Source: an uncultured Bacilli bacterium
GTDB taxonomy: Bacteria; Bacillota_I; Bacilli_A; RF39; UBA660
Assembly (NCBI GenBank): GCA_910587065.1
Contig: CAJUMA010000003.1
Coordinates: 92,602-156,601, forward strand
Length of the DNA: 64,000 bases
Direction: 5' to 3'
Shown: positions 8,235-32,003 of the stretch, one piece after another
Numbering within the stretch: position 1 is the first letter of the stretch
Layout: every line of letters starts with the position of its first letter
Notes under the pieces: model-generated
Told to the model about the DNA's origin: nothing
What the model saw: only the letters and a program-made list of their open reading frames with translations
The model's database searches: none
Made by a program: the position numbers and the translations under genes

Positions 8235-8328
8235 CTTATCACCGTTAATATTGTAACCAACTATGATTTTGTTTATACAATTGTTTACAAACTAATTTTT
8301 TTTTCTTATAATCTAAATAGGTGATAAA

Positions 8329-24339: not shown

Positions 24340-24563
24340 TGGTTATAAAAAACAAGGAACAAGAGGAGTAAAATACTCTACATTATTAGGGATGAAAGAT
24401 CATTGACTGAAAGTCTTTCTTAATGAAAGTATTTGAAGGTAGCTTGGGAGTTGTTAATCTGAAATAATTAGTAAGATTAAACGAGTCACTCACGTTAAGA
24501 GTAAAGAGCACAAATTAAGGTGGTACCACGAGTCTTCGTCCTTTGGATGAGGACTCTTTTTGT
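24340..24563 (+). promoter_or_regulatory. T-box riboswitch leader, controlling the valS operon
   Basis: Canonical T-box sequence AAATTAAGGTGGTACCACGAG at 24512-24533. Followed by an 11-bp terminator (gagtcttcgtc/gatgaggactc) and TTTTT at 24530-24563. Stem I region carries an AGAGGAG-like element and a GUC triplet (aaagtctttc), a candidate Val specifier. Confidence 0.75.
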
Positions 24564-24578
24564 ATATTAGGAGGATTT

Positions 24579-25088
24579 ATGAATACAGTGGTTCAAGATA
24601 AAAATATAGCATTTGTAATTAATCAGGAAAATAAAATACTAGTATTTATTAGAGAAACAAGAGATTCGGTAATTATGTCTTTTCCCGAAATAATGGCGGA
24701 TAGTAAAATACCTTTTTTAAATGATGAACATTTAGAAGAATATGAATATATAAATTCGTATTCAAAAGAAAAAAATGATTGTAAAATTGTTAATGGTCAT
24801 TTAATCAAATTCCCAAAACGAGTGCGCAAACACTTTTATGCTTTAAGATATGATTTAATGCCAGAAGATATTGAAGAAATAATGAATTTAACTCATAAGA
24901 TAGGCGCGGAACCATACTTTCTTGATATTGAAGAGATTAAAGACCTTTTTACCAAAAATTATTACTTAAGTAATTCCATTGATACAGCAAATTTAATAGA
25001 AAAAAAACTAAAACCAATTTTAGAACTTGAAAAGAAAATGCAACCGTTGCTTGTACAAAAACAAAAGATTAGAAAGGAAAGATATTAA
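24579..25088 (+). CDS. hypothetical protein (169 aa), first gene of the T-box-controlled valS operon
   Basis: ATG 24579 with RBS TTAGGAGGA. The ORF-track start at 24543 falls inside the terminator stem and is rejected. Its stop overlaps the valS ATG by 1 nt. Confidence 0.55.
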   Translation: MNTVVQDKNIAFVINQENKILVFIRETRDSVIMSFPEIMADSKIPFLNDEHLEEYEYINSYSKEKNDCKIVNGHLIKFPKRVRKHFYALRYDLMPEDIEEIMNLTHKIGAEPYFLDIEEIKDLFTKNYYLSNSIDTANLIEKKLKPILELEKKMQPLLVQKQKIRKERY

Positions 25089-27607: not shown

Positions 27608-27647
27608 AAAAAATATCACTTATATTTTAAGTGATATTTTTATTTTA
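27608..27647. terminator. bidirectional rho-independent terminator between valS (+) and a convergent (-) gene
   Basis: Palindrome aaatatcactta-tatt-ttaagtgatattt, flanked by A-run and T-run. Confidence 0.6.
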
Positions 27648-28437
27648 GTTTAGGACCATCATTAGTTTTTTTATCATAGTAATTGAATAAATGAACAGCA
27701 ACACTGCTAATATTTTCATCAACTAATGCTTGCATTATATCCTCCGATTCCGTAAAGTTTATAATATCAACAACAGTTTCTTCAATGCCTTCAACATCGC
27801 CATAAAAGGCATTAACCAAAAATTCAGCAGCTTCTTCGATTGAAGCTATCCTATCGTTAGTTTTATTAATAGATCGAAATATTTGTTTAATTATAAAGTT
27901 TGGACTAATTTTTTCAGAATGTTCTAAATAATCTGCCATAAAGAAACTATTAAAGGAAGAAATTATTTCCATATCTTCCTCATCTAAAAGAAGATAAGCA
28001 AGAGCTTTATCATAAAAAGATAAATTATTCATTATATGGGAAGCATCCAGAAGTTCTGTTATATTATTTGGGTTTCTTATTAAAGCAGAGAAATCATTTC
28101 CTTTTTTATGAGCCGATTTTATTTGGTTTAATATTCTAATTTCCTCTTTAGTTGCGACATCTAAAACAATATTTTTATTAACTAAAATATAAAAGTCCAT
28201 AATAACTACTGATTGAAGTAGCATTTGTCTTACTCGTAACATTTTTATATCTTCATCTGTTGCTGTTGGTATTAGTTGTTTATAAATAAAGCCACTATCT
28301 TGTGTAAGCGTATTTCCCATAGCGATTGCTTTAATATAATCGTTATTGCGCATATTACCAGGAAGTACAGGAGAATTAAATATTAGTTTTTCTAACGTTA
28401 TAAGGCATAAACGTAAATATTCATTACTAAATTTCAT
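27640..28437 (-). CDS. hypothetical protein (265 aa)
   Basis: ATG at 28437 preceded by AAAGGGAGGAAATATA. The ORF-track N-terminal extension is rejected. Confidence 0.5.
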   Translation of the reverse strand: MKFSNEYLRLCLITLEKLIFNSPVLPGNMRNNDYIKAIAMGNTLTQDSGFIYKQLIPTATDEDIKMLRVRQMLLQSVVIMDFYILVNKNIVLDVATKEEIRILNQIKSAHKKGNDFSALIRNPNNITELLDASHIMNNLSFYDKALAYLLLDEEDMEIISSFNSFFMADYLEHSEKISPNFIIKQIFRSINKTNDRIASIEEAAEFLVNAFYGDVEGIEETVVDIINFTESEDIMQALVDENISSVAVHLFNYYDKKTNDGPKLK

Positions 28438-28571
28438 TATATTTCCTCCCTTTAAGTAAAGTATTCTAGTATATTTAATCAAATTTGTCAAAAAATACTG
28501 CATATAAATAAAAAAAACTAGAAATTATGGTAAAATTATAGTAGATTAATAAATGAGAAAGAGGTTTTGTT

Positions 28572-30071: not shown

Positions 30072-30076
30072 TAATT

Positions 30077-30103
30077 AAACTCACAATTTTGTGAGTTTTT
30101 TTG
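30077..30103 (+). terminator. rho-independent terminator after lysS
   Basis: actcacaa / ttgtgagt stem followed by T7. Confidence 0.6.
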
Positions 30104-30126
30104 TGTAAATATGTAAAAAAATATAC

Positions 30127-30177
30127 TTGACAAGACGATTAGGGCTTGCTAAAAAAAAAAAAAAAAAATGCTATAAT
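30127..30177 (+). promoter_or_regulatory. promoter with extended -10 (TGcTATAAT) preceded by an 18-A homopolymer in the spacer
   Basis: ttgaca at 30127-30132. A18 at 30151-30168. tgctataat at 30169-30177. Lies 52 nt upstream of the secreted repeat-protein gene. Confidence 0.45.
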
Positions 30178-30228
30178 CAAAGTAGATAAGTCCGCTTAAA
30201 AAAGGACAATGATTGTAGGTGTTTTAGT

Positions 30229-31755
30229 ATGAAGAAAGTATTAAGTATGATCGTTAGTTTAATGTTAATAGTAAGTCCAGTATATGCCCTAGATTCAGAA
30301 GGAGTAATATATGATAATAGTACAAGCGGATCAAACGCAACAAATGTAAATGATGCCTTAAATGATTTATATAGTAAACTTAATGATATAAATAATATAG
30401 GAAATGCAACAGCAGATAAAATACTAAGTGGATATACAGCCTATGTCAAAGGAAATACAATAACAGGAAGTATACCAAGTAAAGGAGCAACAACATATAC
30501 TCCTGGAATAAAAGATCAAACGATAGCATCCGGTAATTATATATCAGGAACACAAACCATAAAAGGGGATGCAAACCTAGTTGCTGCAAATATAGCCAAA
30601 GGAAAGAGTATATTTGGAGTAAATGGTACATATACAAGTGATGCCAATGCTACTGCATCTGATATGGCATTAGGAAAAACAGCCTATGTAAATGGAAATA
30701 AGATAACTGGAGCATTAAAAAATCTAACAACATCAACACCAATACAACATGCAACAAATAATGGAACAAGAGTAGTAGCAGGAGATGCAGGATATGTATC
30801 GACAAATACAGATGGAGTATCAAGATTCCAAATAAGATATAATGGAGAGTCAGGAATCATATTGGGTAATACATTATTTGGACTGGAAATGAGTAAAGTA
30901 GTAAATACATTAGGAATAAATGCTAGTAAGGTAGCAAAAGGACAAACAATAGCAGGAGTAGCTGGATCATATACAAGTGATGCAAATGCTACAGCTGGAA
31001 ATATCTTAAGTGGAAAGACTGCATATGTAAATGGAAGTAAAATAACTGGGTCAATGGTGGATAGAACAAGTAATACAGGAACAACTGGTTTAGCATGGGC
31101 AACAAATAATTTAGAAATAACACAGTATAATCAATTAAGAATAGGAATAAATCCTGGATATTATGGAAGTGCTAACTATTCTAATTGGGGAGTATCAGGA
31201 ATAGTTATAGGAGATTTTCAAACTAAATTGGGTATAACTGCAGATAAAATAGTATCAGGTCAAACTGTAGCTGGAGTTACTGGTACAGGAGGAGGTTACA
31301 AAGCATATAAATTTGAAAAAGTTAAAGCAAGTGTATTAAGTGATAAAACATTTGATGGGTCATGGAAAAATATGATGTCAAAGGATGATTGGTCCTCATT
31401 TTCTATAGATTTAGGATTTACACCAAGTGAAGTAGTAGACTGCAAAGCCAAATTGGTAGGCAATTATTCTACTAATAGTGAAACTTCATGGGGAGCTAAT
31501 TTTCGAATTTCAAGAGGTTACATCGAAATGACTCACACTGGACAAAGTTACTATATGTACGATTTGCCATCGGATATGTACCTTTCTAACTCCAATAGTA
31601 CTGAAAATTATTCTGATATAATTACTAAATGTAGTGTTACTGGAAGTAAGCTAGTGTTTACCGTTTCAGATTCAAGTTATGGAACAACAACCTATGTTCC
31701 TGTTCAAACTAGAGCTACTGAATTTTATCTTACAGGCACTCTTATATATAAATAA
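30229..31755 (+). CDS. secreted protein with tandem ~45-aa repeats (tail-fibre-like / adhesin-like) and a C-terminal beta-rich domain
   Basis: Signal peptide MKKVLSMIVSLMLIVSPVYA. At least 3 repeats of the form A.KI..G.T..GV.G.YTSDANATA..IL.GKTAYVNG.KITG. No LPXTG motif and no C-terminal TM. Confidence 0.6.
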   Translation: MKKVLSMIVSLMLIVSPVYALDSEGVIYDNSTSGSNATNVNDALNDLYSKLNDINNIGNATADKILSGYTAYVKGNTITGSIPSKGATTYTPGIKDQTIASGNYISGTQTIKGDANLVAANIAKGKSIFGVNGTYTSDANATASDMALGKTAYVNGNKITGALKNLTTSTPIQHATNNGTRVVAGDAGYVSTNTDGVSRFQIRYNGESGIILGNTLFGLEMSKVVNTLGINASKVAKGQTIAGVAGSYTSDANATAGNILSGKTAYVNGSKITGSMVDRTSNTGTTGLAWATNNLEITQYNQLRIGINPGYYGSANYSNWGVSGIVIGDFQTKLGITADKIVSGQTVAGVTGTGGGYKAYKFEKVKASVLSDKTFDGSWKNMMSKDDWSSFSIDLGFTPSEVVDCKAKLVGNYSTNSETSWGANFRISRGYIEMTHTGQSYYMYDLPSDMYLSNSNSTENYSDIITKCSVTGSKLVFTVSDSSYGTTTYVPVQTRATEFYLTGTLIYK

Positions 31756-31816
31756 AATTAGAAAAAAATTATGCCATATATATACATACAATAAACAAGT
31801 GAATTTAGTTTATGTA

Positions 31817-31845
31817 TTGACAAAATATTCATATAGTAGTAATAT
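31817..31845 (+). promoter_or_regulatory. promoter (TTGACA-17-TAATAT) of the leader and Rel-like gene
   Basis: -35 at 31817-31822 and -10 at 31840-31845. Confidence 0.45.
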
Positions 31846-31874
31846 TCAATTACATTAATTATTTAAGAGGGTTT

Positions 31875-31964
31875 ATGAGGGAATTTTGTTGTATGATTTT
31901 AATTAATTTTTCATCTATACTAAATACTCTTTCATGTGTCCTAAATGTACAAACGATAGTCTAA
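31875..31964 (+). CDS. candidate 29-codon leader peptide (MREFCCMILINFSSILNTLSCVLNVQTIV)
   Basis: ATG preceded by AAGAGGG with a short 3-nt spacer. The stop TAA lies in the loop of the downstream terminator hairpin. Confidence 0.25.
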   Translation: MREFCCMILINFSSILNTLSCVLNVQTIV

Positions 31965-31986
31965 AGAAGCTATCGTTTTGTTTGTT
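31951..31986 (+). terminator. intrinsic terminator / attenuator immediately upstream of the Rel-like gene RBS
   Basis: 9-bp stem aaacgatag/ctatcgttt with a 10-nt loop, then the U-rich tract ttgtttgtttttt. The RBS GGGGAGG follows directly. Confidence 0.45.
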
Positions 31987-32003
31987 TTTTGGGGAGGTAT
32001 ATT

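Follow-up and report, generated by a model that had tools for sequence, protein, structure and literature searches.

A pure poly(A) tract in a repeated promoter cassette as a probable slipped-strand switch of secreted-protein genes in uncultured gut Erysipelotrichales

In the promoter of a secreted repeat-protein gene of an uncultured gut bacterium, an uninterrupted run of 18 adenines (A18) is probably the hypermutable core of a portable promoter cassette, serving as a slipped-strand contingency switch that works either as an on/off device or as a dimmer. The gene lies in the 64,000-nucleotide stretch of DNA analyzed here (the window), and the same cassette recurs in related uncultured Erysipelotrichales. 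We favor this reading because of the anatomy of the promoter, the purity and placement of the tract, its length polymorphism between invariant flanks, the multi-copy use of the cassette for secreted proteins, and the parallels with poly(G) tracts. The kind of switch is already known from the poly(A) tracts of mycoplasmas; what it would reveal here is a large contingency regulon based on simple sequence repeats in an uncultured lineage of gut commensals.

Within the window, which has a GC content of 29% and long housekeeping open reading frames (ORFs) that are intact under the standard code, the tract is a strong outlier. Runs of five, six, seven, and eight A number 273, 105, 56, and 12, respectively, beyond which one A18 stands alone, and the longest T run (A and T runs were both counted) measures 10 nt. 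From the base composition (A = 39%), about 0.002 runs of at least 18 A are expected in 64 kb. Since the run counts end at length eight and are then followed by a single 18, the tract is not due to chance. It is situated within the 157 nt that separate the lysS stop codon (30071) from the ATG at 30229, ends 60 nt 5' of this ATG, and abuts TTGCT on its 5' side and TGcTATAAT on its 3' side. The surrounding elements are collected in Table 1. Read from the opposite direction, the tract might have been the T-run of a minus-strand terminator, but this candidate was rejected as the minus strand lacks a GC-rich hairpin before the tract.

Table 1. Elements of the poly(A) promoter and the gene behind it (window coordinates)
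Feature	Position	Strand	Remarks
lysS intrinsic terminator	30077-30105	+	Hairpin 30077-30098, AAACTCACA/TGTGAGTTT, plus T-run; from a terminator scan
A-rich UP-element-like stretch	30103-30125	+	GTGTAAATATGTAAAAAAATATA; directly 5' of TTGACA; conserved upstream edge of the cassette
TTGACA hexamer	30127-30132	+	Consensus; 39 nt to TATAAT
Variable 13-nt segment	30133-30145	+	AGACGATTAGGGC; separates the two conserved TTG hexamers
TTGCTA, -35-like hexamer	30146-30151	+	Last base is the first A of the tract
Poly(A) tract, perfect A18	30151-30168	+	Variable element of the promoter; read directly from the sequence
Extended -10, TGcTATAAT	30169-30177	+	TGCTATAAT; TATAAT proper at 30172-30177
5' leader	30178-30228	+	Conserved start-site-proximal motif CAAAGTAGATAAGTCCGC; RBS AGGTG at 30217-30221, 7 nt before the ATG
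Secreted repeat-protein gene, 508 aa	30229-31755	+	Residues 1-20 signal peptide; C-terminal beta-sandwich at about 355-508

The sequence-only reading that preceded this analysis had placed a perfect A18 between a TTGACA hexamer and the extended -10, with a -35 to -10 distance of about 39 nt. Both statements agree with the sequence, and at this distance TTGACA is too far away to be the -35 hexamer of TATAAT. It had also proposed that contraction of the tract would restore a 17-nt spacing between these two hexamers, which the arithmetic forbids. The distance equals 21 + n for a tract of length n, so that even the removal of all 18 A residues leaves 21 nt, and a spacing of 17 nt is never reached. 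The hexamer abutting the tract offers another geometry, with a TTGCTA-TATAAT spacer of n + 2, that is, 20 nt at A18, 19 nt at A17, and 17 nt at A15. We infer from this arrangement that TTGCTA would act as the -35 element across the tract. A third pairing exists between TTGACA and the hexamer TAAAAA formed by T30150 and A30151-30155, which are 17 nt apart, with TGC preceding TAAAAA. Ordinary promoters nearby use 17-nt spacers as well, namely TTGACA-17-TAATAT before the relA-like gene and TTTACA-17-TATAAT at about 8280. In a count of TTGnnn/TAnAAT pairs over 0.5 Mb, 17 nt was the commonest spacer within the range of 12 to 24 nt, although the AT-rich background makes this count too noisy to show a spacer preference specific to the organism. 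As a side observation, the canonical promoter TTTACA-N17-TATAAT (8280-8310, + strand) carries a T9 run in its spacer, a shorter homopolymer at a comparable place.

The promoter in the window is one copy of a cassette with a fixed order of parts, consisting of a terminator, an A-rich stretch, CTTGACA, 13 nt of variable sequence, TTGCT, the A tract, TGnTAnAnT, and a conserved leader. We found 39 complete cassettes in several related uncultured gut Erysipelotrichales, with the tract placed alike in each and uninterrupted in every one of them (a count that covers one T+A9 copy). The source assemblies of these loci include a mouse gut catalogue. Metagenomes were scanned with the pattern CTTGACA-N13-TTGCT-A8, thus demanding at least eight A, and this gave 33 loci, comprising 24 true cassettes and nine unrelated chance matches to A8. 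The consensus of 18 distinct cassettes comprises the A-rich stretch, CTTGACA, (C/G)TTGCT, the tract, TGnTAnAnT, and the leader motif TAGR.AAGT..GCC.AAAA; over the same 18, the upstream edge reads '..ta.tgt..Aaaat...aaAAA..'. By its composition and position, the A-rich stretch may be UP-like in function. The (C/G)TTGCT motif stands immediately 5' of the tract in every copy, and the -10 element keeps to the pattern TGnTAnAnT across cassette types (TGCTATAAT in 19 cases, TGGTACACT in five, TGCTACAAT in two, plus others). The 13-nt segment differs by cassette type at constant length (AGACGATTAGGGC, TAATAGTTTAGAC, GAATAGTTTAGAC, AAGAAAATAAAAC). TTGACA itself is invariant and lies at a fixed 13 nt from TTGCT, though the bases in between vary. 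For loci L048-L080, the search pattern itself dictated this distance, which counts as independent evidence in the protein-derived loci (L001-L003 and L045-L047) alone. A conserved RNA secondary structure in the 5' leader was not found (RNAalifold on nine diverse leaders, 0 pairs), nor was there an Rfam match at the cassette/leader site.

The cassette is a multi-copy element within single genomes. One metagenome (ERZ777011) holds 12 contigs at about 7x coverage, each with a cassette behind a different flank, from which at least 12 cassette loci in one genome follow. These paralogues are identical for at least 150-200 nt downstream of the tract and unrelated beyond about 25 nt upstream; among paralogous loci, similarity stops about 25 nt upstream of CTTGACA. 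The mouse-gut MAG MGBC164624, which belongs to a different species, has at least four paralogues of the window's protein, and 5' of these, behind tuf and other genes, it shows the same module of terminator, A-rich stretch, CTTGACA, 13 variable nt, TTGCT, A17, and TGGTACACT. The same cassette also precedes an unrelated signal-peptide gene. A hairpin with a T-run is found just upstream of many or most copies, behind genes as different as lysS and tuf, and such a terminator would insulate a switchable promoter from read-through. Many contigs end either at the cassette or within the gene's conserved 5' portion, which is what a multi-copy repeat would be expected to cause.

That the unit can move as a whole is suggested by a related Erysipelotrichales MAG (L104) with the same valS-lysS-relA synteny, where the relA-like gene directly follows lysS. 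Here, the cassette and its gene are missing (L104 4498-4714 against window 30072-31988), and the unit fits exactly between the lysS terminator and the promoter of the relA-like gene. It therefore represents an indel, and, judged from this comparison, cassette and gene may have been inserted or lost together as a portable module. A phage origin of the cassette was considered and rejected on a search of viral contigs that gave 0 matches. Two further loci (L062 and L059) have the cassette joined to a DUF285 LRR gene copy with an internal truncation (L062 2307-2600 compared with L070), which has lost the signal peptide together with its first ~150 codons and has a broken frame. This copy is likely a pseudogene or a product of recombination within the family.

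The length of the tract varies around a sharp mode. The 39 complete cassettes comprise six A16, 21 A17, and seven A18, plus one each of A8, T+A9, A20, A21, and A33. The concentration at 16-18 (34/39) was not imposed by the search, since the pattern asked for no more than eight A. Across the related loci (about 0.5 Mb), no A run of at least 11 nt that belongs to these organisms lies outside a cassette. At the lysS-relA locus itself, more assemblies were found via the exact LysS, the exact RelA-like protein, and a 95% orthologue. Across these independent assemblies, the sequence upstream of the tract is identical in all (400/400) and that downstream in up to 400/400 positions, while the tract measures A16 in two, A17 in four, A18 in three (window included), and A21 and A33 in one each; another contig ends inside the tract. 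The exact 508-aa protein is encoded in two MAGs, both with A17 against A18 in the window and with the remaining promoter identical. In L002, the tract is the sole difference from the window over more than 800 nt. Differences between orthologues of other loci amount to one residue (L003a A17 vs L080 A16; L003b A17 vs L075 A16) or considerably more (L055 A18 vs L047 T+A9; L062 A18 vs L070 A8, exactly 10 nt). The phase-variation switch proposed by the sequence-only reading thus stands in kind, with same-locus lengths that differ between independent assemblies while the flanks stay constant and with conservation in 39 cassettes, whereas the geometry it proposed does not.

Some of the contigs compared have a coverage of 2.5-8x only, and short reads are prone to indel errors once a homopolymer exceeds about 14 nt. 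Differences of one residue in a homopolymer of about 17 nt between short-read assemblies could therefore be consensus noise. Several extreme alleles call for similar caution. The A33 at the lysS locus (L082 3581-3613) could be a mis-join; L059 (230-310, at 2.6x coverage) is visibly garbled and reads A16-GAAAAGAAAAAAAAAGAGAAAAAAACCC-A18-C-A18; and in L102, an A21 is followed by GA instead of TGC. These alleles may be real expansions or homopolymer assembly errors. Taken to its end, this line of thought holds that the tract is real but that all its length differences, possibly even A18 versus a true A17, are errors of sequencing or assembly. We regard this as extremely unlikely. More than 40 independent contigs, drawn from NCBI, ENA, JGI, and Logan assemblies, contain the tract itself, and A8, T+A9, A20, and A21 at orthologous loci are far beyond a noise of one residue in either direction. 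Moreover, were all the single-residue calls noise, the placement and purity of the tract would still indicate a contingency locus.

A more serious alternative, though a rather unlikely one in our view, is a static promoter architecture in which a rigid A-tract is selected at about 17 nt, either to keep the -35 region free of competing sites or to position the upstream elements, the length differences being neutral or technical. The tight A17 mode over paralogues and species is what stabilizing selection would yield, and A17 is found in 10 of the 12 cassettes of ERZ777011. An extended -10 may function without a -35 element, in which case the length of the tract might matter little. A precedent exists in Mycoplasma agalactiae, where a vpma poly(T) beside the -10 causes no phase variation (PMC2268961), so that a homopolymer at the -10 is not by itself proof of switching. 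On the other hand, a static spacer does not account for a locus at which the tract alone differs over more than 800 nt and occurs in five or more lengths. A spacer of mixed A and T could have the same length, and yet the tract is pure in 39/39 copies, which argues that mutability itself has been retained. Runs of 16-18 identical bases are intrinsically unstable in replication owing to slipped-strand mispairing.

More distant relatives of the secreted protein point in the same direction. They carry a G10 directly 5' of TATAAT or TATATT (L043 2828-2837; L009 2945-2954), and the L043 promoter, TTGATT-N9-G10-TATAAT, likewise has a 19-nt spacer. These tracts look like parallel poly(G) switches, and they make a homopolymer at the -10 a recurrent trait of the gene family. 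Poly(G) has a quite different DNA structure but the same mutability, which again speaks against a static role of the A-tract. The first of the two sequences stems from a Hadza human-gut MAG labelled Bacilli, the second from a MAG labelled Muribaculaceae. One of the contigs that carry a cassette has another G10, about 25 nt 5' of a start codon (L062 4579-4588).

A slipped-strand switch built on this cassette would operate as follows. Slipped-strand mispairing during replication would add or delete A residues in the tract, which takes up the whole space from the conserved upstream elements to the extended -10 TGnTAnAnT. These upstream elements are TTGCTA, immediately next to the tract, and, 19 bp further up, TTGACA with the A-rich UP-like stretch. 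Each change of 1 nt would shift them relative to the -10 in distance as well as in rotational phase, thereby altering the promoter output of that one gene. Family members would then switch independently, so that the cells of one population would differ in their surface proteins. On this reading, the observed length differences would have arisen in vivo by slippage and would alter transcription. Judging from the sharp A17 mode, tract length is probably under selection, with a putative functional optimum within 16-18.

How the length would be read out is less straightforward. If TTGCTA is the -35 and only the spacer counts, A15-A16 would be strongest and the window's A18 weak or OFF. This simple spacer model misses the observed mode, as the modal A17 gives 19 nt, which exceeds the canonical 17 ± 1, and an A15 allele is absent among the 39 complete cassettes. 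It also leaves two features unexplained, the fixed TTGACA and the A-rich stretch. Being conserved at a fixed 13 nt and yet too far from TATAAT, TTGACA must serve another role. Candidates are recruitment of the UP/-35 type, a sabA-like alignment or rheostat mechanism, the binding of an activator, and a second promoter with its start inside the tract. As to alignment, the outlier alleles fit a helical phase in one case (A8, 10 fewer), whereas T+A9, A20, A21, and A33 do not fit cleanly.

The last of these roles can be extended into a reading of its own, in which a promoter P1 (TTGACA-17-TGC-TAAAAA, with TAAAAA at 30150-30155) is functional, transcription starts inside the A run, and RNA polymerase slips there. 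TGnTATAAT would then be a competing promoter or a sigma-dependent pause, and control would be exerted via reiterative transcription or promoter competition instead of spacing. The invariant TTGACA exactly 13 nt from TTGCT does provide a canonical 17-nt spacer, with TGn before TAAAAA, and the A-rich stretch just upstream of TTGACA is at the position of an UP element. However, TAAAAA has no T at -7, one of the most important bases of a -10 element, and the 13-nt distance was imposed by the search pattern in most copies. The conserved TGnTAnAnT, the leader motif about 7 nt after it, and the total length of 16-18 would all be left without explanation. We therefore hold slippage at a P1 start site to be very unlikely as the basis of control. 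A hybrid of both ideas strikes us as quite improbable, too. It would be a two-promoter device in which a near-perfect P1 (the UP-like stretch, TTGACA, 17 nt, and TGc-TAAAAA) captures RNA polymerase, with its -10 and start inside the poly(A). Depending on the tract length, the polymerase would either be lost to reiterative synthesis or occlusion at P1, without a product, or initiate productively from the extended -10 at the other end of the tract. Replication slippage would then be read out by transcription slippage, and the module would spread by gene conversion behind the terminators of housekeeping genes in a lineage of gut commensals.

A slipped-strand switch of the kind we favor has well-described counterparts. 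Among walled bacteria, the Erysipelotrichales are the nearest relatives of the Mollicutes. The arrangement in the window shares with the mycoplasmal vlp system and with porA a homopolymer between the -10 and an upstream element, length variation at the same locus (here between independent assemblies), and secreted products. In Mycoplasma hyorhinis, a poly(A) tract lies in the vlp promoter directly upstream of the -10 (Citti & Wise 1995, as summarized in PMC2268961 and PMC10502178). Each surface-protein gene has a highly conserved promoter, leader, and signal-peptide region of its own, beyond which the sequences diverge, and the vlp genes switch independently by insertion or deletion of A (PMC2268961, PMC10502178). 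Further poly(A) promoter switches of mycoplasmas are maa2 and vmm (PMC2268961, PMC10502178). The likeness to vlp lies in the A homopolymer upstream of the -10, the multigene family, and the conserved 5' cassette that each member has for itself. The ON length of vlp is reportedly 17 A, which would equal the mode of the cassettes here.

Nonetheless, there are several differences from vlp. The products of the cassettes have ordinary Sec signal peptides without a lipoprotein Cys and are members of tail-fibre-like and DUF285 LRR families. Their genes occur dispersed, each behind some housekeeping gene, whereas vlp genes are clustered. A 3-nt TGn linker follows the tract, which puts the abutting -35 at 19 nt from the -10 at A17, and the cassette has an additional consensus TTGACA another 19 bp upstream. 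The 508-aa protein is no Vlp proper, for its N-terminus MKKVLSMIVSLMLIVSPVYALDS has no Cys and its sequence is unrelated to Vlp; by these features, it is an analogue of Vlp and not a homologue. The comparison is drawn here from sequence, and the ON/OFF phenotype belongs to vlp.

A second counterpart is the T-tract 'rheostat' of sabA in Helicobacter pylori, where a promoter-proximal homopolymer varies by slippage and whose arrangement is shared by several genes of the genome (PMC4081817). Both systems have an A/T homopolymer of similar length, and the cassette has an A-rich UP-like stretch and TTGACA upstream. The 10-nt difference between A18 in L062 and A8 in L070 would be tolerable in a helical-phase model, albeit as a single anecdotal pair; the pair L055 and L047, which differs by 9 nt, is a counter-case. 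The sabA tract adjoins the -35 on its upstream side, whereas the tract of the cassette is located between the -10 and all upstream elements. Moreover, the cassette is a near-identical repeated module, in contrast to the independent promoters of the sabA type. Among Gram-negative pathogens, Neisseria porA and opc have a poly(G) or poly(C) in the spacer between -35 and -10, and Bordetella fim has such a tract between an activator site and the -10; in each, the length controls the expression of a surface protein. The poly(G) cassettes of the distant relatives, such as that of L043, look porA-type. Unlike these single loci with G/C tracts, the cassettes described here are multi-copy and poly(A).

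The products of the cassettes are consistent with a contingency system. The sequence-only reading had called the downstream product a signal-peptide protein with tandem repeats resembling those of tail fibers, and the first part is upheld by a Sec-type N-terminus. Read by eye, the 508-aa ORF starts with MKKVLSMIVSLMLIVSPVYA|LDS, a typical Sec signal peptide without a lipobox Cys. Repeated motifs are present as well, at residues 58-82, 139-163, and 252-276 and also at 223-247 and 329-353, with scores of 61-97 against a shuffle maximum of 49. They are, however, dispersed instead of tandem, TRF having found one 2-copy 9-mer in the gene and nothing else. As for tail fibers, the protein has phage-like repeat motifs but no homology to characterized tail-fibre families, and its gene is chromosomal, with a signal peptide and with valS, lysS, and a relA-like gene as neighbors. 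The protein has no Pfam match and matches three PHROGs, all of unknown function (E 1e-27 to 1e-21). Its AlphaFold model has a pLDDT of 53 and is confident in the C-terminal beta-sandwich only. With this model, Foldseek gave nothing against the PDB at E ≤ 0.001, and the top viral match was a 'tail protein' at E 1e-6 but with a TM of 0.11, a weak resemblance.

Within the family, the N-terminal ~160 aa (the signal peptide and first repeats) are nearly invariant and the C-termini are mosaic, such that paralogues share promoter, leader, and N-terminus and differ downstream. A second cassette-driven family has the N-terminus M..LGFAAVSTTL.LNG, and one of its members is a DUF285/BspA-type LRR protein (E 1.7e-46). 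By eye, every intact readable cassette-driven ORF has a signal peptide and none a lipobox; the products are presumably located at the surface.

Work on phase variation in gut commensals has dealt almost exclusively with the invertible promoters of Bacteroidales, and our literature search on the subject gave mainly inverton papers. The cassettes point to a contingency system of another kind, based on simple sequence repeats, in which uncultured mouse-gut Erysipelotrichales would have 12 or more loci per genome that switch independently. If confirmed, this would mean that abundant commensals use a mycoplasma-style poly(A) promoter strategy, presumably against the pressure of IgA or phages. It would also provide a signature, CTTGACA-N13-TTGCT-A16-18-TGnTAnAnT, for locating such loci in metagenomes, and would account for the assemblies of these genomes breaking at these genes.

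Finally, some other features of the window deserve mention. The closest named LysS (90% identity) comes from an 'Erysipelotrichales bacterium' MAG, and the cluster of the window's own LysS is labelled 'Bacilli bacterium'. Between valS and lysS lies an ORF of 287 aa (27640-28503, - strand; called 265 aa in MAGs) without a significant Pfam match, whose position is kept in all assemblies of the species; L104 has a 264-aa gene there, likewise without a Pfam match. The only Rfam match in the window is a T-box leader (RF00230, 105.9 bits, E 2e-22) at 24346-24546 (+ strand), upstream of the valS ORF starting at 25088. In the leader of the relA/spoT-like gene, a hairpin with a T-run (AAACGATAG..CTATCGTTT TGTTTGTTTT, 31951-31978, + strand) falls between the TTGACA-17-TAATAT promoter (31817-31845) and the start codon. 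As this hairpin is conserved in the related Erysipelotrichales MAG (L104 4661-4690), it may be an attenuator.
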